A stretch of 64,000 nt of DNA from Rhodospirillaceae bacterium. Its GTDB lineage: Bacteria; Pseudomonadota; Alphaproteobacteria; SHVZ01. The notes under the pieces are model-generated. The model was not told the DNA's origin, ran no database searches, and saw nothing but the letters and a program-made list of their open reading frames with translations. Shown here one piece after another: positions 2 through 47,472 of this stretch. Where the stretch lies: contig JAEULB010000159.1 in assembly GCA_016792585.1 (NCBI GenBank), positions 47,097-111,096 of the forward strand, in the 5' to 3' direction. Positions within the stretch are counted from its first letter, which is position 1. Each line of letters opens with the position of its first letter. Position numbers and translations under genes: made by a program.

Positions 2-211
2 CAGGGCCTCGACGCGCCGGTCGAAGGCGAGACGCCGAGCCCGCTCGATCCGCCGAAGGGCTGTCCCTTCCACACCCGCTGCCCGCGCAAGGTAGGCACG
101 ATCTGCGAGGCCGCGCGTCCGCCAGAGCAGGTGACGCCCGCCGGCCATCGCATGGCCTGCCACATCCCGATGGCCGATCTCGCCCGCGTCCAGGAGAAAG
201 AGCTGACATGA
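2..211 (+). CDS. Dpp/Opp-type ABC transporter ATP-binding protein, C-terminal fragment (5' end outside window)
   Basis: Frame-2 translation ends ...GCPFHTRCPRKVGTICEAARPPEQVTPAGHRMACHIPMADLARVQEKELT*. This is the Cys/His-rich C-terminal tail typical of DppF/OppF ATPases. The stop overlaps the next start (ATGA at 208-211). Confidence 0.75.
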   Translation, partial: QGLDAPVEGETPSPLDPPKGCPFHTRCPRKVGTICEAARPPEQVTPAGHRMACHIPMADLARVQEKELT

Positions 212-1917
212 TTCAGAGCCAGATGGTCGCGACCCGCACCGAGGTCGCGGGCACGCGCGGTGTCGTCACCGGCGGGCATCCGGCCGAGGCCGCGGCCGGC
301 GTGGCAATGATCGAGGCCGGCGGCAATGCGATCGATGCCGTCGTCGCCGCCGCGTTCGTAGGATTCGTCGTCGAGCCGGCTTCGTGCGGCATCGGCGGCT
401 ACGGCCACCTCGCGGTCTGGCTCGGCAAGGAAAAGCGCTTCGTCACCTTCGACCACTATGTCCGCGCGCCGGGTGCGGCACGACCCGACATGTTCGAGAT
501 CGATCGCACCAAGCCGAACAAGTACTACGGCTTCCCCTACACGGTCGGGATGAAGGCCGAGCAGGGTCCGCTGGCGCCGGCGGTGCCGGGCGCCGTCGCG
601 GGCCTGTGCGATGCGCACCGCATGTTCGGCCGGCTGCCGCTGGCCAAGGTGCTGGAGCCGGCGATCGCCGAGGCCGAAGCCGGCATCGAGGTCACCTGGC
701 AGCTGCTGCTGCCGATCTCCGAGCGCCTCGCCGCGATCCAGGCATTGCCGGCGACCGCCGACTGGCTGCTGCGCAACAACCTGCCGCCGAAGGCCGCGGG
801 CCAGCTCGCCGGCGGCGGCGACCGTCTCGACGGCAAGGATCTCGCGAAGACGCTCCGCCGCATCGCCGAGAAGGGTGCGGCCGGCTTCTACGAAGGGCCG
901 GTCGCCGAGGCGATCGAGCGCCATGTGACCGGCCAGGGCGGCATCCTGACCGCCGCCGATCTCGCGACATACAAGACCCGCATCCTGGAAGAGAAGCCGA
1001 CCCGCTATCGCGGCCTCAACTGCAACACCTGCTACGACCAGGTGACCTACGAGGCGCTCAACATCCTCGAATGCTTCGACCTCAAGGCCCTCGGCAAGGA
1101 CAGCCTCGCCTTCCGCCATCTGATCGCCGAGGCGCTCGCCTGCGGCTTCATCGACAGCATGACGCATTACGGCGACCCGGACTTCGAGCGGGCACCGGTC
1201 GAAGGCCTCGCCAGCCCCGAGTTCGGGAAGATGCGCGCCCAGCAGCTCCGCATGGACCGCGCCCTGCCGCGTCCGGTCGCCGCCGCCGATCCCTGGCCCT
1301 ACGACAACTCGGCCGAGAGGCCGAAGAAGATCGCCAACGAGCCGGGCATCGCCAAGCTCGCCGGCACCAGCCAGATGGCCTCGGCCGATGCCGAGGGGAA
1401 CGTCTGCGCCTTGATCACCAGCCTCACCAGCGGCTTCGGATCGCTGATGATCGTTCCCGGTACCGGGGTAATCCTCAACAACTCGATGCAGAACTTCGAC
1501 CCGCGGCCCGACCAGGCGAACCGCATCAAGCCGGGCAAGATGCCGATCTTCGCCGCCCCTTCGCTGGTCGCCGAGAAGGACGGCCGCGCCGTCTTCGCCG
1601 GCTGCGGCTCGGGCGGCTACCGGATCACCACGGGCGTGCTGCACGCCTTCCTCTACGCGACCGAGTTCGGGATGGGCCCGCAGGCGGCGGTCGATGCGCC
1701 GCGGATCCACTGCCAGGGCCAGGAGACCTATGTCGACGGCCGCATTCCGCAGGAGGTGCGCGACGGTCTCGCGGCGATGGGCCACAAGGTCGTGGTCCAG
1801 ACCGAGTCCCCCGGCCTCAACGCCTTTGGCCGTGTGAACGCAATCACCGTCGCCAAGGACGGCTCGATGCGCGCCGGTTCGGGCCCGGCCTGGGCCTCCG
1901 CCGCGGCCGCGTGCTGA
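208..1917 (+). CDS. gamma-glutamyltransferase family protein (Ntn hydrolase), paralog 1
   Basis: 569-aa ORF with GGNAIDAVVAAAF, nucleophile region LAG-TSQMASADAEGNVCALITSL and GSGGYRI...DAPRIH. No N-terminal signal peptide is visible. Confidence 0.85.
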   Translation: MIQSQMVATRTEVAGTRGVVTGGHPAEAAAGVAMIEAGGNAIDAVVAAAFVGFVVEPASCGIGGYGHLAVWLGKEKRFVTFDHYVRAPGAARPDMFEIDRTKPNKYYGFPYTVGMKAEQGPLAPAVPGAVAGLCDAHRMFGRLPLAKVLEPAIAEAEAGIEVTWQLLLPISERLAAIQALPATADWLLRNNLPPKAAGQLAGGGDRLDGKDLAKTLRRIAEKGAAGFYEGPVAEAIERHVTGQGGILTAADLATYKTRILEEKPTRYRGLNCNTCYDQVTYEALNILECFDLKALGKDSLAFRHLIAEALACGFIDSMTHYGDPDFERAPVEGLASPEFGKMRAQQLRMDRALPRPVAAADPWPYDNSAERPKKIANEPGIAKLAGTSQMASADAEGNVCALITSLTSGFGSLMIVPGTGVILNNSMQNFDPRPDQANRIKPGKMPIFAAPSLVAEKDGRAVFAGCGSGGYRITTGVLHAFLYATEFGMGPQAAVDAPRIHCQGQETYVDGRIPQEVRDGLAAMGHKVVVQTESPGLNAFGRVNAITVAKDGSMRAGSGPAWASAAAAC

Positions 1918-1993: not shown

Positions 1994-3667
1994 ATGAGGC
2001 CCGGCTCGGTCATCCTCGGCCGGACGCCGATCAGCGGTACCAAGGGCGCCGTCGCCTGCGGGCACCAGACAGCGGCCGATGTCGGCGTCGAGATCATCCG
2101 CCAGGGCGGCAATGCGGTGGATGCGGCGATCGCCGGCGCCTTCGCCTCCTTCGTCGTCGAGCCGCAGATGTGCGGGATCGGCGGGCATGGCCGGATGTCG
2201 GTCTATCTCGCGAAGACCGATAAGGCCGTCGGCATCGACCACTTCATCCGGGCGCCCAAGGCGGCGACGCCGGAGATGTACACGCGGGCTCTCGCCAAGT
2301 GGCGCAACGCCGGCTGGGGCGGCGTCGAGGGCGCGATCAACACCACGGGCCACCTCTCGGTCGGAATCCCCGGCACCATCGCCGGCCTCTGGGAGGCGCA
2401 TCGCCTCTTCGCCAAGCTGCCGTGGAAGTCGTTGGTCGGCCCCGCGATCGAGCTTGCCCGCGCCGGCGTCGTCGCCGATCCGAGGCTGACCGCCTCGATC
2501 GCCGGCCGGACGGTCGAGATCCGCCAGTATGCCGAGGCGGCGAAGTGGCTGCTGCCTGACGACGCGCCGCCCCGCCCGGCCAATGCCGGCGGCGCTTTCC
2601 ACCGCTTCGACTTCTCCGACATGGCCCGGACGCTGGAGACCATCGCCGAGAAAGGCGCCGCCGCCTTCTATGACGGCCGGCTCGCCGCCGCGATCGACCG
2701 TGAGATGCAGTCCGCCGGCGGCCTGCTGACGTCAGAGGACCTCGCCGGCTACAAGCCCGACACTTTCCTTCAGCCCTGGCACGACTACCGCGGACGCGAC
2801 TACGTCACCTGCGGCGACCTTATCTATGTCGAGGCCCTCAACATCCTCGAGCGCTTCGACCTGGGATCGCTCGACCCGCACGGGGCCGAGGTCCGGCACC
2901 TAGTCGCCGAGGCCCTGGCCCAGTCCTTCGCCGACAACTTCGCCCATGCCGCCGACCCGAGGCACCTGAAGGCGCCGCTCGAGGGTCTGGCCAGCAAGGC
3001 CTTCGCCGCCGAGCAGGCGGCGCTTATCCGGACCGAAAAGGCGCGCACCAAGGTCGAGCCGGGCAACCCGTGGCCGCACCAGGGACCGACGCCGTCGGTC
3101 CCGCCGCCGCCCTTCGAGGGCACGACCCAGATCGTCGCCGCCGACGGCGACGGCAACATGGCGAGCCTGATCACCAGCCTCGGCAGCGCTTTCGGCTCGC
3201 TGGTCATGATCCCTGGAACCGGGGTCTTCCTCGGCAACGCCATGCAGTGGTTCGACCCGCGCCCTGGCCAGGCCAACTCGGTCGGCCCCGGACGCATGCC
3301 CCTTTATGCCGCCCCGGTCGCGATCTTCCGCGAAGGCGGCCGATCGATCGGTGGGATCGCCGGCTCCGGCGGCTATCGCATCCTCTCGGCAATTCTAATC
3401 TTAACACTCAATTATCTTAACCATCTATTTGATCCACAACAATCTATCGACCTTCCGCGAATTCACACGGAGGGTGGCGACCTCGAGGTCGACAGCCGCA
3501 CCTCCCCGGCCGCCATCGATCGCTTGAAAGCCCTCGGCCACCGGGTCCGGCTGGTCGACGGCGTCGGCCTGCCGACCGCCTTCGGCCGCCCGTCTGCGGT
3601 GTGGCGGACGGCCGACGGCCTGGTTCCCGCCAGCGACGCGCGCTCCGGCGGCGTCGCCGCCTTCTGA
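1994..3667 (+). CDS. gamma-glutamyltransferase family protein, paralog 2
   Basis: From ORF 1919-3667. I moved the start to ATG 1994 (MRPGSVILGR...) because 1943-1972 is a REP-like hairpin. Motifs GGNAVDAAIAGAF, EG-TTQIVAADGDGNMASLITSL and GSGGYRI...LPRIH. No signal peptide. Confidence 0.8.
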   Translation: MRPGSVILGRTPISGTKGAVACGHQTAADVGVEIIRQGGNAVDAAIAGAFASFVVEPQMCGIGGHGRMSVYLAKTDKAVGIDHFIRAPKAATPEMYTRALAKWRNAGWGGVEGAINTTGHLSVGIPGTIAGLWEAHRLFAKLPWKSLVGPAIELARAGVVADPRLTASIAGRTVEIRQYAEAAKWLLPDDAPPRPANAGGAFHRFDFSDMARTLETIAEKGAAAFYDGRLAAAIDREMQSAGGLLTSEDLAGYKPDTFLQPWHDYRGRDYVTCGDLIYVEALNILERFDLGSLDPHGAEVRHLVAEALAQSFADNFAHAADPRHLKAPLEGLASKAFAAEQAALIRTEKARTKVEPGNPWPHQGPTPSVPPPPFEGTTQIVAADGDGNMASLITSLGSAFGSLVMIPGTGVFLGNAMQWFDPRPGQANSVGPGRMPLYAAPVAIFREGGRSIGGIAGSGGYRILSAILILTLNYLNHLFDPQQSIDLPRIHTEGGDLEVDSRTSPAAIDRLKALGHRVRLVDGVGLPTAFGRPSAVWRTADGLVPASDARSGGVAAF

Positions 3668-3744
3668 CCGATGCCGGTCGCTTTGCGGCAGGTACGGACC
3701 CTGTCCGCGACGTGAGATGATCCACCGCTTCCCAGAGGAATGAG

Positions 3745-5091
3745 ATGTCCCTTCCCGCCAAAGCCAAATACGTCGTCATCGGCGCCGGTGTTCACGGCCT
3801 ATCGACCGCCTATCACCTGGCCGAGAAGCTGGAGGCGACCGGCAAGGGCTCGGGCAAGGACATCGTGATCCTGGACAAGACCGGCATCGCCGCCGGCGCC
3901 TCGGGCATCGCCTGCGGGGTCATCCGCAACAACTACTTCCAGCCGGCGATGCGCGAGCTGATGGCCGAGTGCGTGTCGGTCTGGGAGTCGGACCCCAAAG
4001 CCTTCTCCTACCACCCCGTAGGCTACATGCAGATCTCTCCTGAAGTGATGCATGAGAATGTCGGGCAGATCGCCAAGCAGCAGAAAGATATCGGCTACGA
4101 CTCTGTTTTCATTGAGGGCAAGGCCGACTGCACCAAGTACATGAAGGGCCTGTTCGACGACTGGCAGGCCAAGGGCATCACCTCGGTCCTGCACGAGAAG
4201 AAGGGCGGCTACGCCAACAACCGGGCGTCCATGTACGGGCTCGCCAAGAAGGCTGAGGCGAACGGTGTCCAGATCGTGGCGCCGACCAAGGTCACCGGCT
4301 TCAAGTTCGCGTCCAACTCGACGGCGGTCTCGGCGGTCGAGACCGACCGCGGCACGATCGAGTGCGACTTCGTGGTGGTCGGCGTCGGCCCCTGGATCAA
4401 CCAGGTCTGGAAGATGCTTGACCTGCCCAAGACCGTCGACATCAAGGGCCGCGACGGCAAGGTCCACAAGGCCGTCGGCATGTGGACCTACTGGTGCCTG
4501 GAGGAAGGCACGCTCGGCGTCGATCCCAAGTATGGCCTCATGAACGACGGCAAGATGGGCCCGGTCATGCACGTCGACACCGACGCGCCGTTGCACTCGG
4601 ACGAGGATGGCTCCCTCATCACCGACAAGCTCTGGGGCATCTACTACAAGCCCGACTTCAACTTCGACGGCATCCAGGGCGGCGCCATGCCGTACAAGGT
4701 CGAGACCCCGGTAGATGAGGTGAAGATCGACCCTTACGGCCCTGACTCACCTGAGTTCATTGTCGACGCCAACTTCGCGCACATGTTCACCTCGGCCCTC
4801 GCCTTCTGCCAGAAGCGCTACTCGGGCCAGGCGCACAAGTGGAAGCACGAGCCGTCTGGCGGGCTGGGCTGCTTCACCCCGGACAGCTTCCCGGTCTTCG
4901 ACGTCTTCCGCGACAACGTCTATGTGCTGGCCGACTCGAACCACGGGTACAAGATGATCGCGGTCGGCAAGCTCGCAGCCGGCGAGATCGTCAGCGGCAC
5001 CAAGAGCAAGCTGCTCGAGCCCTTCCGGATCTCGCGCTTCCCCGAGGGCAAGCTGCACCCGGTCTCCAACAGCCCCTTCCCCTGGAGCTGA
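3745..5091 (+). CDS. FAD-dependent oxidoreductase (DAO / sarcosine-oxidase-beta-like)
   Basis: 448-aa ORF with N-terminal dinucleotide-binding motif KYVVIGAGVHGLSTAYHLA and C-terminal SNHGYKM typical of the DAO family. Confidence 0.8.
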   Translation: MSLPAKAKYVVIGAGVHGLSTAYHLAEKLEATGKGSGKDIVILDKTGIAAGASGIACGVIRNNYFQPAMRELMAECVSVWESDPKAFSYHPVGYMQISPEVMHENVGQIAKQQKDIGYDSVFIEGKADCTKYMKGLFDDWQAKGITSVLHEKKGGYANNRASMYGLAKKAEANGVQIVAPTKVTGFKFASNSTAVSAVETDRGTIECDFVVVGVGPWINQVWKMLDLPKTVDIKGRDGKVHKAVGMWTYWCLEEGTLGVDPKYGLMNDGKMGPVMHVDTDAPLHSDEDGSLITDKLWGIYYKPDFNFDGIQGGAMPYKVETPVDEVKIDPYGPDSPEFIVDANFAHMFTSALAFCQKRYSGQAHKWKHEPSGGLGCFTPDSFPVFDVFRDNVYVLADSNHGYKMIAVGKLAAGEIVSGTKSKLLEPFRISRFPEGKLHPVSNSPFPWS

Positions 5092-5094
5092 CCC

Positions 5095-6516
5095 ATGCCC
5101 GCGCCGATGGATTTCATCCACAAGCTCAAGTTCGACGACCTTCCGGCGAAGGTGGTCGAGCAGGCCAAGCTCTGCCTCGTGGACCTCATCGGCGCGGCGG
5201 CAGCCGGCAGCGAGACCGCGATGTCGCGGATCATCCGCGACCACGCGGTCGAGACCTTCGGGGCGCGCAAGAACGCCGTCCGCCTGATGCTGGACGGCCG
5301 CAAGGTCGGCCCCGCCGGCGCCGCGATGGCCGGCGGCATCACCATCGACGCCTTCGACTCCCATGACGGCCACGTGCTGACCAAGGGCCATGCGGGCGTC
5401 GCGATCCTGCCGACCCTGCTGGCCCTGGCCGACCCGCTGAAGAAGGTCGCCGGCCGCGAATTCCTGACGAGCCTGGTGATCGGCTACGAGATCGCGATCC
5501 GCGCCGGCATCGCCACCCATCGGACGGCGAAGGACTATCACACCTCCGGGTCCTGGAACTCGCTCGGCGCCGCCGCGGTCGTGGCGCGCTGGATGAAGCT
5601 CTCCCCGGCGCTAACCCGGGAGGCCCTCGGCATCGCCGAGTATCATGGCCCCCGCAGCCAGATGATGCGCTGCATCGACTTCCCGACCATGGTGAAGGAC
5701 GGCTCCGGCTGGGGTGCCATGGCCGGCGTCAGCGCGGCACTGCTGGCGAAGGCCGGTTTCACCGGCGCTCCGGCCCTGGTCTGGGAGGGCGCCGACGTCG
5801 CCGATCTCTGGCGCGACCTCGGCAAGCGCTGGCGGATCATGGAGATGTACTTCAAGCCCTACCCGGTCTGCCGCTGGGCCCAGCCGCCGATCACCGCCAG
5901 CCTCGGCCTGCTCAAGAAGCACGGCATCAAGGGCGATGAGGTGACCCAGATCGAGGTCTCGACCTTCCACAACGCCGTCCGGCTCGCGACCCGGACGCCG
6001 AAGTCGACCGAGGAGGCGCAGTACAGCCTGCCCTTCCCGGTCGCCGCCGCGATCGTTCACGGCAAGGTCACCGCCCGCGAAGTCGACGGCAAGGGCCTGA
6101 CCGATCCCCGTGTGCTCAAGCTCGCCCGCGGCATGAAGCTGACCGAGGACCTGTCGCTGACCGCCGAGTTCCCGGCCCGCCGCATCGCCCGCGTCGCCTT
6201 GACCATCAAGGACGGCCGTGTGCTCAAGTCCGATCTCGTCGAGGCGCTCGGCGATCCGGAGCGGCCACTGGGCGCGGCCGGCATCGTCGCCAAGTACCGC
6301 GAGACAGCCGAGGCCGTGCTCGGCAAGGCCCGCACCGAGAAGATCTTGGCTCAGGCGATGGCGATGGACGGAGCGCGAGCCGATGCCCGCGCGCTGGTCG
6401 ACCTGGTGCTGGCGCCGGTGAAGGTGCAGAAGCCGGCGACGACGAAGCGCCGCGCGGCGGGCCGGCCGAAGACGCGCGCCAATGGCAGCGTCCAGGCCCT
6501 CGCCGCCGACGACTGA
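5095..6516 (+). CDS. MmgE/PrpD family protein (2-methylcitrate dehydratase-like) with basic C-terminal tail
   Basis: 473-aa ORF starting 4 nt after the previous stop. The opening FIHKLKFDDLPAKVVEQAKLCLVDLIGAAAAG is typical of MmgE/PrpD. The tail reads KVQKPATTKRRAAGRPKTRANG. Confidence 0.8.
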   Translation: MPAPMDFIHKLKFDDLPAKVVEQAKLCLVDLIGAAAAGSETAMSRIIRDHAVETFGARKNAVRLMLDGRKVGPAGAAMAGGITIDAFDSHDGHVLTKGHAGVAILPTLLALADPLKKVAGREFLTSLVIGYEIAIRAGIATHRTAKDYHTSGSWNSLGAAAVVARWMKLSPALTREALGIAEYHGPRSQMMRCIDFPTMVKDGSGWGAMAGVSAALLAKAGFTGAPALVWEGADVADLWRDLGKRWRIMEMYFKPYPVCRWAQPPITASLGLLKKHGIKGDEVTQIEVSTFHNAVRLATRTPKSTEEAQYSLPFPVAAAIVHGKVTAREVDGKGLTDPRVLKLARGMKLTEDLSLTAEFPARRIARVALTIKDGRVLKSDLVEALGDPERPLGAAGIVAKYRETAEAVLGKARTEKILAQAMAMDGARADARALVDLVLAPVKVQKPATTKRRAAGRPKTRANGSVQALAADD

Positions 6517-6535
6517 TCCGCTTCGAGGCGCCCGG

Positions 6536-6691
6536 CTATTCGGCCGGCGCGCCCGCCGGAAGATTCGCCGTTCCCTGTCGCTCGATCAGTTTGTCGCGCT
6601 CGACCATCCAGCCGCGGAAGATGACCACCATCCCGAGCATCACCAGGACGGTGAAGATCATGATCATGATCGGCAGGAATACCTCATGCAT
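6536..6691 (-). CDS. small hydrophobic protein, 51 aa (below the ORF-track cutoff)
   Basis: My translation is MHEVFLPIMIMIFTVLVMLGMVVIFRGWMVERDKLIERQGTANLPAGAPAE*. It has one predicted TM helix and a G-rich RBS-like AGGGGG a few nt upstream. It lies 88 nt downstream of the ABC ATPase on the same strand. Confidence 0.35.
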   Translation of the reverse strand: MHEVFLPIMIMIFTVLVMLGMVVIFRGWMVERDKLIERQGTANLPAGAPAE

Positions 6692-6779
6692 GTCAGCCCC
6701 CTGAAATTCTTCAGCAAAAGAAGGATTTCAGAGTTGGCCGTGGTCAGCATTGATTCAGGTCAAATTTGCGGAGAACCGC

Positions 6780-8495
6780 CTAGTTCACGTAGCGGTGCCG
6801 GGCGTGGATGCGGCGCTCGCGCGGATCGGGGCGCGGCACGGCTGAGAGCAGTGCCTTCGTGTAGCCGTGAACAGGGTCGTTGCAGACCTGCTCGGCATCG
6901 CCGGTCTCGACCACCTTGCCGCGATACATCACCGCGACCCGGTCGCAGATGTAGCGGATGACGCTGATGTCGTGGCTGACGAAGACGTAGGCGAGCTTGA
7001 GCTCGTCCTGGAGCTGCAGCATCAGGTCGAGCATCTGGGCACGGAGGGAGACGTCGAGGGCCGAGGTCGCCTCGTCCGCGACGATCAGGCGCGGGCTCAA
7101 GGCCAGCGCGCGAGCGATGCCGATGCGCTGGCGCTGGCCGCCGGAGAAGGCGTGCGGGTAGCGCTCGGCCCAGTCCGGATTGAGCCCGACGCGCTTCAAG
7201 AGTGCGGCGACCCGGTCGTGCAGCTCCGAGCCCTCGGCGATGCCGTTCACCAGCAACGGCTCGCCGATGATCTGGCCGACGGTCATGCGCGGATTGAGCG
7301 AGGCGAACGGATCCTGGAAGATCATGCGCATCTCGCGCCGGCACTCCCGCAGCCTGTCCTTCTCCAGGCTGGCCACGTCGTCGACGCTGCCGTCGGGACG
7401 GCGATAGAGGATCTGCCCGGCAGTCGGCTCGTAGACGCGAAGCAGGCAGCGGCCGAGCGTGGTCTTGCCCGAGCCGGACTCGCCGACGATACCGAGCGTC
7501 TCGCCCGCGCGCACGACGATGTCGACGTCGTCGACGGCGCGGACATGGTCGACCACCTTGCGGAAGAAACCCTTCCGGATCGGGAAGTGCATCTTGAGCC
7601 CGCGCACGTCGAGCAATGGCGGCTCCTCGGCGGAGACCGGCTCGCGCGCGGCGCGGATCTGGGAAGGCCGCTCCAGCTTCAGCACGTTGCCGAGCAGCAT
7701 CTGGGTATAGGGATCCTGGGGGGCGTGGAAGATCTGCTCGACCGGGCCGCGCTCGACCACCTTTCCCTGGTACATGACCACGACCTCGTCGGCGATCTCG
7801 GCGACGACGCCCATGTCGTGGGTGATGAACATCACCGCCATGCCGCGCTCGGCCTGGAGGCGCTTCATCAGGTCGAGGATCTCGGCCTGGGTGGTGACAT
7901 CCAGAGCCGTGGTCGGCTCGTCGGCGATCAGCACCTGCGGATTGCAGGCCAAGGCCATCGCGATCATCGCCCGCTGCCGCATGCCGCCCGAGTACTCGAA
8001 GGTGTAGCGCTCGATCGCACGCTCCGGATTCGGAATCTCGACTGCGCGCAGAAGCTCGATCGCCCGCGCCGTCGCCTCCTTCTTGCTCATGCCGAGATGG
8101 AGCGTCAGCACCTCGGTGATCTGGTTGCCGATCGTGTGCACCGGCGACAGCGACGACATCGGCTCCTGGAAGATCATCGCGATCTCGGCGCCGCGCACCG
8201 ACCGGATCTCGCGCCCGCGCGGGTTCAGGGAAGCGAGGTCGACCGATGTACCGTTCGTGCGGTTGAAGACGATCGAGCCCTTCTCCACGCGGCCGGGCGG
8301 ATCGACGATCTGCAGGATCGAGCGGGCAGTCACGCTCTTGCCCGACCCCGACTCGCCGACGACGCAGACGGTCTTGCCGCGCGAGAGGTCGAAAGAGACG
8401 CCGTCGACCGCCTTCACCACGCCGCCGCGCACGGGGAAGTGGGTGTGGAGGTCGCGGATCGAGATGATCGGCTGGCCAGGGGAAGCAGTAGTCAT
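6780..8495 (-). CDS. ABC transporter ATP-binding protein, fused double ATPase (DppD/DppF-like)
   Basis: 571 aa with two Walker A sites (GESGSGKS twice), two signature motifs ([16 protein letters not shown]) and two Walker B sites (LIADEPT, IVADEAT). Confidence 0.9.
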
Positions 8496-18379: not shown

Positions 18380-19905
18380 CATCGTCGACGTCGAAGCGCG
18401 CCGTCGCCTCCCCTCGCGGCGTCGTCGCCGCCCAGCACCCCGCCGCCGCCGAAGCCGGGATCCGCATGCTGGCATCCGGCGGCAACGCGATCGACGCCGC
18501 GGTTGCCGCGACCCTGGCGGTTGGCGTCGTCGAGCCCTGGCTCAGCGGCATCGGCGGCGGCGGCCTGATGCTGCTTCGGCTTGCGGCCGAGGGCGTCACC
18601 CGAGGCATCGACTTCTCGATGGTCTCGCCGCGCCGCCTCGATCCGGCACGCTATGCGCTGGCGACCGGCACCGATGCAGGGCTCTTCCAGTGGCCGCGCG
18701 TCGTGGGCGACCGCAACATTTCCGGTCCGGAGTCGATCTGCGTTCCGGGGACGATCGCCGGCCTCGGCCTCGCCACCGAGCGTTTCGCCAGGCTTTCGTG
18801 GCGCCAACTGATCCAGCCGGCGATCGAACTCGCCGAAGCCGGCCTGCCTGTCGACTGGTTCACCGCACTGACCATCGGCGTCGAGGCCGGGCTCGAGGCG
18901 TATCCGGCGACGCGGATGGTGTTCCTGCCGGGCGGCGCCGCGCCGAAGGCCGATACCGGTCTGAGGCTCGCCAACCCGGCGCTGACGGGGACACTCCGCC
19001 GTCTTGCCGATGCCGGCCCCGGCGACTTCTACGAAGGCGGGATCGCCCGCGGCATCGTCGCCGACCTCGCCGCGCATGGCAGCGTGATCGATCGCGACGA
19101 CCTCGCCGGCTACGAGGCGCGGATGGTCGAACCGGCGTCGCTCGACTATCGGGGAACCGCGATCGAGGCGATGCCCGGCTTGACCGGCGGCCCGACCTAC
19201 CTCGCGGCGATGCGCGGGCTTCTGCACGACATCGTGCCCGGCACCTCGCCGACACCCGAGGCGTTCGTCGCCTACGCTCGCGCCCTCACCGCAGCCTATG
19301 CCGACCGGTTCGCGACCCACGGCCATGCCGGCCTCACCCACGATTCCGGATGCACCTCGCATGTCAGCGTCATCGACGCGGACGGCAACATGGCGTCGGT
19401 CACCAACACGCTGCTCGCCCGCTTCGGCGCCAAGCTGGTGCTGCCGTCGACCGGCATCCTCATGAACAACGGCATGATGTGGTTCGACCCGCGCCCCGGC
19501 GCCGCAAACGCGATCGCGGCGGGCAAACGGCCGCTTGCGAACATGTGCCCGCTGCTGGCGACGCGCAACGGCACGCCGGTCTTCGTCATGGGGGCCGCCG
19601 GCGGGCGGCAGATCGTGCCGGCGCTGGTGCAGCTGACCTCGCTCCTGCTCGACTTCGGCATGTCGGTCGACGAGGCGCTGCGCGTCCCGCGCCTGGACGC
19701 CAGCACCTCGACCGTGATCTGCGACGACCGCATGCCCGCGGGCCAGGTCGCGGCGATCGCACAGTCGTTTCCGGTCTCGCGCATCGCCGACACCGTCTAT
19801 CCGGTGCAGTTCGGCGTGCCTAACGCAGTGGTTCGCGAGCGCGGCCTCAATATCGGCATGGCGCATCCGACCACGCCGTGGCCAGTCGCGCTGGCGGAGA
19901 GCTAG
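18376..19905 (+). CDS. gamma-glutamyltransferase family protein, paralog 3
   Basis: GTG start overlaps the SDR stop (GTGA). 509 aa with GGNAIDAAVAATLAVGVVEP and GC-TSHVSVIDADGNMASVTNTL. No signal peptide. The 664-aa track ORF is an out-of-gene extension. Confidence 0.8.
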   Translation: MTSSTSKRAVASPRGVVAAQHPAAAEAGIRMLASGGNAIDAAVAATLAVGVVEPWLSGIGGGGLMLLRLAAEGVTRGIDFSMVSPRRLDPARYALATGTDAGLFQWPRVVGDRNISGPESICVPGTIAGLGLATERFARLSWRQLIQPAIELAEAGLPVDWFTALTIGVEAGLEAYPATRMVFLPGGAAPKADTGLRLANPALTGTLRRLADAGPGDFYEGGIARGIVADLAAHGSVIDRDDLAGYEARMVEPASLDYRGTAIEAMPGLTGGPTYLAAMRGLLHDIVPGTSPTPEAFVAYARALTAAYADRFATHGHAGLTHDSGCTSHVSVIDADGNMASVTNTLLARFGAKLVLPSTGILMNNGMMWFDPRPGAANAIAAGKRPLANMCPLLATRNGTPVFVMGAAGGRQIVPALVQLTSLLLDFGMSVDEALRVPRLDASTSTVICDDRMPAGQVAAIAQSFPVSRIADTVYPVQFGVPNAVVRERGLNIGMAHPTTPWPVALAES

Positions 19906-43716: not shown

Positions 43717-43807
43717 ATCAATTCATGTTTGACCTGAAAATAGCCGCGCCCTCATGAAACGTCAACAAGGCCACGTTTCTTGACATAAGCGGCCGATAGG
43801 CGCAGGT

Positions 43808-47310: not shown

Positions 47311-47472
47311 GACCACCCCTTCATGAGCCCGCCGCCCCAATAGCACATCCGGCGCGAGACCCGTCACGGAGCCGTGTTTCCAGGACGGACGTTCCCGATT
47401 GCCAAGCCTTTGAGAGGCATCATAGGCTTTCCTCATTCCTTATCATTCTTGTCCCTAGGGGAGGTTCGCATC

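Follow-up and report, generated by a model that had tools for sequence, protein, structure and literature searches.

In the puf operon of Rhodobacter capsulatus and R. sphaeroides, Alphaproteobacteria with 67-69% GC, RNase E cuts AU-rich sites within the pufQ and pufL coding sequences and thereby sets the stability of the mRNA segment by segment (PMC6238624). Runs of synonymous rare codons have been documented to recur at the same alignment position in homologs of different organisms, above the expectation of a null model (Chaney et al., 2017; PMC5438181), and isolated A/T-rich islands with -10/-35-like hexamers in a GC-rich genome are known as intragenic or antisense promoters that are silenced by H-NS-like proteins, MucR among them (PMC8857273). 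Here we describe an A/T-rich island, probably a small regulatory signal, inside the coding sequence of GGT2, the second of two tandem genes of the gamma-glutamyltransferase (GGT) family in a 64,000-nt stretch of contig JAEULB010000159.1 from a Rhodospirillaceae bacterium (this whole stretch is termed the window below).

The island resembles the puf sites in being a short AU-rich stretch within the coding sequence of an apparently polycistronic message of a GC-rich alphaproteobacterium, but it is longer and far more extreme, adjoins the catalytic motif of an enzyme, and is polymorphic between sister lineages. With the rare-codon clusters it shares synonymous rare-codon runs at a fixed alignment position, in excess of a null model; unlike them, it is conserved in one clade only, is absent from paralogs and orthologs of the same fold, and comes with amino-acid changes toward A/T-rich codons, which points beyond codon rarity. 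A/T-binding silencers typically act on A/T-rich DNA, and by its base sequence the island would offer such a substrate. However, the regions silenced by H-NS-like proteins and MucR are mostly horizontally acquired A/T-rich genes, whereas the island appears to have evolved inside a native GC-rich gene, and its likeness to a promoter is no greater than its composition predicts. In Streptomyces, TTA codons are bldA-dependent. There is a likeness to that system in that TTA is nearly absent from the genome studied here and one TTA falls in the island, but this codon is not conserved across the clade, and to our knowledge no bldA-like regulation through TTA has been described in Alphaproteobacteria.

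Composition and codon usage of the island

The first-pass annotation of the window had counted 18 G/C in the 61 nt at 3390-3450 and had held that no other intragenic stretch is this extreme. The count was reproduced, and the second statement stands as well: the lowest 60-nt GC content of the 64 kb, 0.283, lies at 3391-3450, about 6.9 standard deviations (sd) under the mean of the window (0.676, sd 0.057), the runner-up value being 0.417. The other A/T-rich spots examined lie outside genes; those near 43.7, 47.4 and 15.1 kb are located between long open reading frames (ORFs) or at their ends, and the one near 6.7 kb is downstream of the stop codon of a PrpD-like gene. As was also described in the annotation, the island keeps the reading frame of the ORF ending at 3667 and consists mostly of A/T-ending codons. 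Positions 3389-3451 encode AILILTLNYLNHLFDPQQSID with a GC content at third codon positions (GC3) of 0.24, compared with 0.88 for the whole host gene. Over its full length (Table 1) the island encodes the helix directly after the Gly-Gly motif (SGGYRI), as judged by alignment to the Bacillus GGT chain 4y23, and the peptide of the region reads ...SGGYRILSAILILTLNYLNHLFDPQQSIDLPRIHTEG.... The two paralog peptides with which this helix had been aligned are indeed encoded in the window, at 1630-1710 and 19618-19698, and both stretches are GC-normal (GC3 of 0.96 and 1.0, respectively). The edges of the island are compositionally sharp, and CAATTC and GAATTC flank it. G is the depleted base: a 78-nt segment starting at 3379 holds 4 G, against a mean of 25.9 (sd 3.7), with C normal at 25.

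Among the 36 putative genes of the window, the 20-codon segment from 3386 is the stretch of rarest codons (mean ln w of -2.25, compared with -0.35 +/- 0.27). The remaining extremes are all located at ORF 5' ends, and the island is the most extreme internal run. Its rare codons, given with their share among synonyms, are TTA (0.2%), CTA (twice, 1.1%), CCA (2.1%), ACA (2.2%), TCT (2.4%), TTT (2.6%), ATT (3.8%) and CAA (twice, 6.5%). TTA occurs at about 0.1 per 1000 codons in these genes, and the single one in the island is at 3401-3403; the relative L001 has two, and most of the clade, including L002, L003 and the L008 group, has none. The direct repeats that had been pointed out, ATCTTAAC at 3398 and 3414 and ATCTAT at 3423 and 3442, are present, but they do not exceed chance, with a repeated 8-mer in 7% and a repeated 6-mer in 60% of shuffles of the island, and they are not kept in orthologs.

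Table 1. Coordinates of the island, of sequence matches within it and of the surrounding genes (positions of the window).
Feature	Position	Strand	Details
Full A/T-rich, G-poor island in the window	3389..3466	+	78 nt: G 5, C 23, A 25, T 25
5' extension of the island	3389..3412	+	Very A/T-rich only in the window, L001 and L004; variable elsewhere in the clade
Zone of A/T third positions apparently kept by selection	3413..3463	+	Codons 3413, 3422-3445, 3452, 3461
Conserved core, eight consecutive codons	3422..3445	+	Third base A/T in 11/11 aligned island-bearing orthologs
Antisense sigma-70-like match TTGTGG-N17-GATAAT	3411..3439	-	-35 at 3439..3434, -10 at 3416..3411
Second antisense promoter-like match TTAAGA-17-TAGAAT	3392..3420	-	One of three such matches in 64 kb
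DnaA-box-like 9-mer TGATCCACA, Caulobacter G-box type	3430..3438	+	Single match in the 64-kb window
Host gene GGT2, second of two tandem GGT-family genes	1994..3667	+	557 aa from ATG 1994
Upstream tandem GGT paralog (GGT1)	208..1917	+	GC-normal at the homologous helix, GC3 0.96
Downstream genes, same apparent operon	3745..6516	+	FAD-dependent oxidoreductase 3745-5091; MmgE/PrpD-family protein 5095-6516

Conservation and origin of the island

The database proteins closest to GGT2 are 93-74% identical to it, and the DNA of orthologs was collected from these and from scans of genome and metagenome collections. This gave 11 aligned island-bearing orthologs, nine full-length ones that were used for columns across the whole gene, and 13 distinct sequences when extra orthologs are included. 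The question raised in the first-pass annotation, whether orthologs share the island, can be answered: a low-GC stretch occupies the same codons in all 13, which derive from separate metagenome-assembled genomes or metagenome assemblies, lakes and a membrane bioreactor included. Its GC content there is 0.32-0.47 and its GC3 0.17-0.46, compared with a GC3 of about 0.8-0.9 in the rest of each gene, and each lineage shows substitutions of its own. One of the orthologs, L014 (contig CAZZLX010000259.1), is split over two frames, 630-1583 and 1585-2295, by a frameshift (pseudogene) or an assembly error; it, too, carries the island.

The third positions of the island are not equally free to change. 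At nine of its 24 codons the third base is A or T in 11 of 11 orthologs, where neutral evolution predicts 0.65 such codons and the maximum among 20,000 simulation runs was five. These simulations used an F81-type model, an all-A/T root and a tree length of 3.95, scaled from flanking four-fold degenerate sites. The model is probably conservative with regard to a claim of selection, because A/T-to-G/C changes are transitions, which we infer to be usually faster than modelled. Across the whole gene, 11 of the 534 alignable codon columns end in A or T in all nine full-length orthologs, and all 11 fall within 3413-3463, with none among the roughly 510 columns outside this zone. The core reads CAT CTA TTT GAT CCA CAA CAA TCT in the window and TAT CGA ATT GAT CCA CAA CGA TCT in the consensus of the clade; two additional orthologs, L040 and L038, retain eight and seven of its eight A/T endings, respectively. 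Such heterogeneity among columns, beyond anything seen in the simulations, argues that the island is not a neutral relic and that it is kept A/T-rich by selection acting on the nucleotide sequence, over a codon bias of about 90% GC3. The first-pass annotation had allowed for a neutral, lineage-old quirk in case relatives carried the same codons. Lineage-old it is, but the pattern of its codon columns does not look neutral.

In the alignment, the conserved property is A/T composition and not a motif. A and T swap at the conserved third positions (CCA/CCT, TCT/TCA), and two core codons vary in the amino acid they encode while always ending in A or T, one of them being CTA, CGA, CAA, CAT, TCA or AAT and the other CAA, CGA, AGA, ACA or GGA. 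The first codon position has moved as well: the G content there falls from 0.43 in GC-normal orthologs to 0.19, and that of C is unchanged. The constraint therefore extends beyond synonymous choice, with amino-acid changes right after the SGGYRI Gly-Gly motif, and this points to a constraint on the nucleic acid and not to codon rarity alone.

In a tree made from the rest of the gene the island-bearing sequences form one clade. Its outgroups L010, L029, L012, L013, L041 and L042 are GC-normal and L009 is intermediate (0.57), and the nested lineages L007 and L025/L037 carry a GC-normal, ancestral-looking version. L007 is nearest to L006 along the whole gene, and both come from one metagenome. 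Alleles with and without the island appear to coexist, the difference between them being confined to a very short tract. Recombination was considered as the source of the GC-normal tract of L007 and was set aside, as the flanks of L007 are closest to L006; only the replacement of a very short tract or a reversion fits. The pair L006/L007 (= L023/L024; metagenome Ga0194132, Lake Tanganyika) constitutes a natural swap of an island allele for a GC-normal one.

Among the explanations offered at first were an assembly chimera and short-tract recombination from a low-GC homolog, and neither of them held. The presence of the island in separate assemblies, with lineage-specific substitutions, argues against a chimera and a shared contaminant alike, and the diverged versions in independent assemblies also led us to reject an engineered insert, which CAATTC...GAATTC could have suggested by its resemblance to ligated restriction ends. 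As to import, the peptide of the island is about 66% identical to that of the GC-normal L025 and about 31% identical to that of the low-GC Bacillus GGT (hand count), and LN.LDY..DPQR.ID is common to it, L025 and L007. The DNA of the island had no match in plasmid or phage collections, and a database search with a 50-aa consensus peptide yielded no low-GC donor candidate. Neither a second copy of the island or of parts of it nor an att-like repeat was found at 3300-7000 or in the whole window, which disposes of the attachment site of an integrative element. Since the peptide is orthologous to that of GC-normal sisters, L009 is compositionally intermediate, and foreign matches and second copies were not found, we conclude from these comparisons that the island was not imported but evolved where it stands through point substitutions, in the ancestor shared by a single clade of uncultured Alphaproteobacteria.

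Candidate roles of the island

Three physical consequences of such an island are all likely: an accessible AU-rich stretch in the mRNA, slow decoding, and A/T-rich DNA that can bind RNA polymerase or nucleoid proteins. Tentatively, we put first the possibility that it serves as an unstructured AU-rich segment of the operon mRNA and as an entry site of the RNase E type. The putative polycistronic mRNA would encode a peptide ABC transporter, GGT1, GGT2, the oxidoreductase and the PrpD-like protein. Within this otherwise strongly structured, GC-rich message the island would form an AU-rich, weakly structured segment of about 50-70 nt and a preferred substrate for entry and cleavage by RNase E, and after a cut there the GGT portion and the oxidoreductase/PrpD portion downstream would differ in lifetime. 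Slowed translation and antisense initiation would then be likely physical side-effects of the sequence.

The predicted unpaired probability is 0.48-0.72 in the island, compared with 0.31-0.36 in its flanks and with 0.28-0.42 for the corresponding stretch of GC-normal orthologs; with a GC content of 0.28-0.35 the island thus has, by prediction, the features of an AU-rich, single-stranded segment. The genes for GGT1, GGT2, the oxidoreductase and the PrpD-like protein are co-oriented and closely spaced, an order kept in most loci, and the island is the sole A/T-rich spot from GGT1 to the end of the PrpD-like gene. The 77-nt spacer between GGT2 and the oxidoreductase gene is GC-rich and holds no promoter-like or terminator-like site. 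An RNA-level role is ranked first because the constraint is compositional and reaches non-synonymous positions, because the island is predicted to be less paired, and because the puf operon provides a precedent in GC-rich Alphaproteobacteria. That the island is clade-specific and dispensable, being absent from paralogs, outgroups, L007 and L025/L037, speaks for regulatory tuning over a need in folding.

Several observations weigh against this reading or against the case for selection on which it builds. The mean GC3 of the island, 0.35, is close to the 0.38 expected neutrally from an all-A/T ancestor (5-95% range 0.31-0.45); as this mean fits slow neutral amelioration, it is the distribution over columns that carries the case for selection. 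Counting A/T-to-G/C versus G/C-to-A/T changes by parsimony was only weakly informative, and the flanking control itself showed a 5:1 excess of G/C-to-A/T. Synonymous codon identity was 0.68 in the island and 0.69 in the flanks, the chance expectation being lower in the island. At four-fold degenerate sites C3:G3 is 16:9, which equals the flank ratio. There is consequently no clean strand asymmetry, and the depletion of G, which we had considered as proof of a role at the RNA level, was weakened as an argument for such a role over one at the DNA level. The link to the downstream genes is also loose, since L007 and L037 have the oxidoreductase gene without the island, as appears to be the case for the outgroup L042, judged by its MSLPA start only; a co-occurrence of the island with the oxidoreductase/PrpD genes, promising at first, failed with these lineages. 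Finally, cleavage inside GGT2 would destroy the GGT2 message, whereas a site in the spacer could serve.

Another way to account for the island is a conserved rare-codon cluster that slows ribosomes late in the synthesis of GGT2 and either aids folding or assembly of the small-subunit region or throttles output. Such a role would fit the most extreme internal rare-codon run among the putative genes and the eight consecutive codons that stay A/T-ending, with A or T alike, where every replacement lands on a rare codon; conservation of rare-codon clusters at specific positions is documented (PMC5438181). We nevertheless consider it rather unlikely. The cluster is found in one clade, and paralogs, outgroups and L007 and L025/L037, whose proteins are 77-80% identical, do without it, so the fold, being the same in these, does not need it. 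Moreover, the shift of first codon positions to A/T and the amino-acid changes by the Gly-Gly motif are not required by synonymous rarity, and the strictly kept codons TAT, CAT and GAT are not among the very rare ones, with shares of 32%, 36% and 20% among their synonyms, respectively.

An element at the DNA level was also proposed in the first-pass annotation. Part of this proposal is consistent with our results, as A/T appears to be selectively kept at synonymous sites, but a conserved plus-strand promoter was not found, nor was an IHF consensus by eye. The element could be an intragenic promoter, or a nucleation or roadblock site for a candidate A/T-binding protein such as MucR or GapR, and on balance we regard it as doubtful. 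All the other A/T-rich islands examined in the window are intergenic, and alphaproteobacterial MucR has a binding preference for A/T-rich DNA (PMC8857273). If the island were a promoter, the most plausible form would be an antisense one, TTGnnn-N17-GATAAT, initiating near 3404. At this position the TTGTGG-N17-GATAAT match scores at least 8/12 in seven of the 11 aligned orthologs, and TTGnnn-N17-GATAAT or GATAGT is fixed in place in 12 of the 13 lineages, according to a reading of the codon tables. Counted from such a start, the zone 3413-3463 would cover roughly -9 to -59, and the always-kept TAT and CAA codons would provide the critical A of the -10 element and the TTG of the -35 element. However, when the same peptides were recoded at random with the codon usage of the island, a minus-strand match arose in 65-89% of trials; 8.3 of 11 orthologs were expected to carry one and nine did. 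As recoding reaches the same frequency, the motif adds no evidence beyond composition, and the match at 3411..3439 is probably a by-product of it. In addition, neither a terminator on the minus strand nor a conserved open frame was found for an antisense product, the downstream genes are not obviously driven by the island, and about 12 specific bases suffice for a promoter, which does not call for 50-70 nt of A/T. The second antisense match has weaker variants in L001, L004 and L006 and none in the other orthologs. The three sigma-70 consensus-like matches of the window (47446..47419, 43765..43737 and 3420..3392) are all on the minus strand, and the real promoters of the organism probably deviate from the Escherichia coli consensus.

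Other specific elements were looked for within the island. No plus-strand sigma-70 promoter was conserved in the orthologs or found in the whole window at the threshold of the tool, and an internal promoter for the oxidoreductase gene was rejected, as no hexamers are conserved on that strand. By eye, none of the consensus sequences of Caulobacter sigma-73, RpoH, ECF and sigma-54 fitted the island; a CtrA site (TTAA-N7-TTAA) would be spaced by 12 here, and no CcrM site (GANTC) was seen. An FNR/FixK box (TTGAT-N4-ATCAA) reached 9/10, by eye, in the window, L001 and L004 only, and 7-8/10 elsewhere. The DnaA-box-like 9-mer resembles a G-box of the Caulobacter kind. It has at least one match in 27% of shuffles, is exact in eight of 11 orthologs and is broken in the nearest relatives L001, L002 and L004; as a single copy at chance level it does not seem to be under a constraint of its own and was rejected as a DnaA box. 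The alphaproteobacterial G-box has been described as a T-to-G variant of the usual box (PMC4468827). No Rfam covariance model matched either strand of 3000-4000 at E <= 1, and an overlapping gene was discarded, as all five other frames contain stops in most orthologs.

That the island is a neutral relic, left in an ancestor by one burst of GC-to-AT mutations or by a conversion tract and slowly being erased, strikes us as improbable. Its mean GC3 agrees with the neutral expectation, many of the changes that set it apart from GC-normal orthologs are of the commonest spontaneous kind (C-to-T and G-to-A transitions), two nested lineages are GC-normal, and synonymous identity is not above that of the flanks. 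What decides against it is the number of codons left unreverted in 11 lineages and the crowding of every all-A/T column of the gene into 51 nt; a relic would further require an ancestor with essentially 0% GC3, and the window lineage has lost still more G relative to L001, L004 and L002 (GAT to AAC, CGA to CTA, GCG to GCA).

A latent Rho loading (rut) site, an unstructured stretch with C in excess of G that would exert polarity on the downstream genes when GGT2 is untranslated, is very unlikely. Features of the rut type are present, with 23-25 C against 4-5 G over 78 nt and low predicted structure, and L025/L037 stay G-poor (G 0.17, C 0.50) without being A/T-rich. However, C-richness does not behave as a selected property: C-ending codons, which both a rut site and the codon bias would favour, are absent from the eight core codons in 11 orthologs, C3:G3 at four-fold sites does not depart from the flanks, and an equally large excess of C over G is found elsewhere in the window. 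Foreign origin or artefact, whether by import of a tract (from a low-GC homolog or a mobile element) or as a chimera of assembly or cloning, has the sharp boundaries and the CAATTC and GAATTC flanks in its favour and is hardly credible in view of the 13 distinct orthologs, which refute the chimera, of the LNYLDYRIDPQRSID-containing peptide, which is orthologous and not foreign, and of the lack of plasmid or phage matches and of a second copy or att-like repeat nearby.

Neighbouring genes and implications

The host gene matches Pfam PF01019 (E = 6.9e-108), homologs of it with solved GGT structures were found, and the catalytic motifs EGTTQ and SGGYR are invariant in its alignment. An alternative start at GTG 1919 (region 1919-1993) would add 25 aa, MMRRSDFLPPLP..., which resemble the N-terminus of P0004/L007, and the true start is ambiguous. 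The window contains three GGT-family paralogs (208-1917, 1994-3667 and about 19618-19698), of which only the middle one carries the island and none has an obvious signal peptide. Two unrelated, GC-rich forms of the spacer at 3668-3744 occur among the homologous loci, one 77-78 nt and the other 89-90 nt long. An inverted repeat, GTCGC...GCGAC, is present in the shorter one; the longer one is typical of the L008 group and is also found in L037, which lacks the island. In the P0010 lineage (L038, L039, 1-760) the gene upstream of the GGT pair encodes a 2OG-Fe(II) oxygenase, where L001 has a peptide ABC-transporter ATPase gene, and in L038/L039 the oxidoreductase gene is called 16 nt after GGT2. 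The GC content also dips, less strongly (to about 0.48), at 4017-4142 within the oxidoreductase gene of the window; GC3 there is at least 0.65, and the low GC comes mostly from the amino-acid composition.

On present evidence, the island is one more functional signal lying within coding sequence, a class already known, and is not a new kind of system. A bolder proposal, to which we give little credence, is that it is a purpose-built, clade-specific gate, defined by composition, that sets the ratio of gamma-glutamyl to oxidoreductase/PrpD expression. Such a gate could act through RNase E entry, a rare-tRNA-dependent pause, or antisense or nucleoid-protein interference; its cost would be the amino-acid changes beside the active-site Gly-Gly, and L006 and L007 would be its "on" and "off" alleles in one lake population. 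If this were true, GC-rich bacteria would have a new class of intragenic control element, one that can evolve and that composition alone would reveal.

The immediate practical value of the finding is modest, as the organisms are uncultured. Still, sister populations with the island or its GC-normal version amount to a ready-made natural allele swap, which makes the case experimentally tractable. If islands of this kind are processing or pause sites, simple scans of composition could serve to locate control points within the operons of uncultured GC-rich bacteria. Genome-wide bias is usually regarded as the only force that shapes bacterial synonymous sites; a 50-nt zone that resists a 90% GC3 bias throughout a clade, even at the price of altered amino acids, would be a natural example of a nucleic-acid signal overriding the optimisation of protein and codons.

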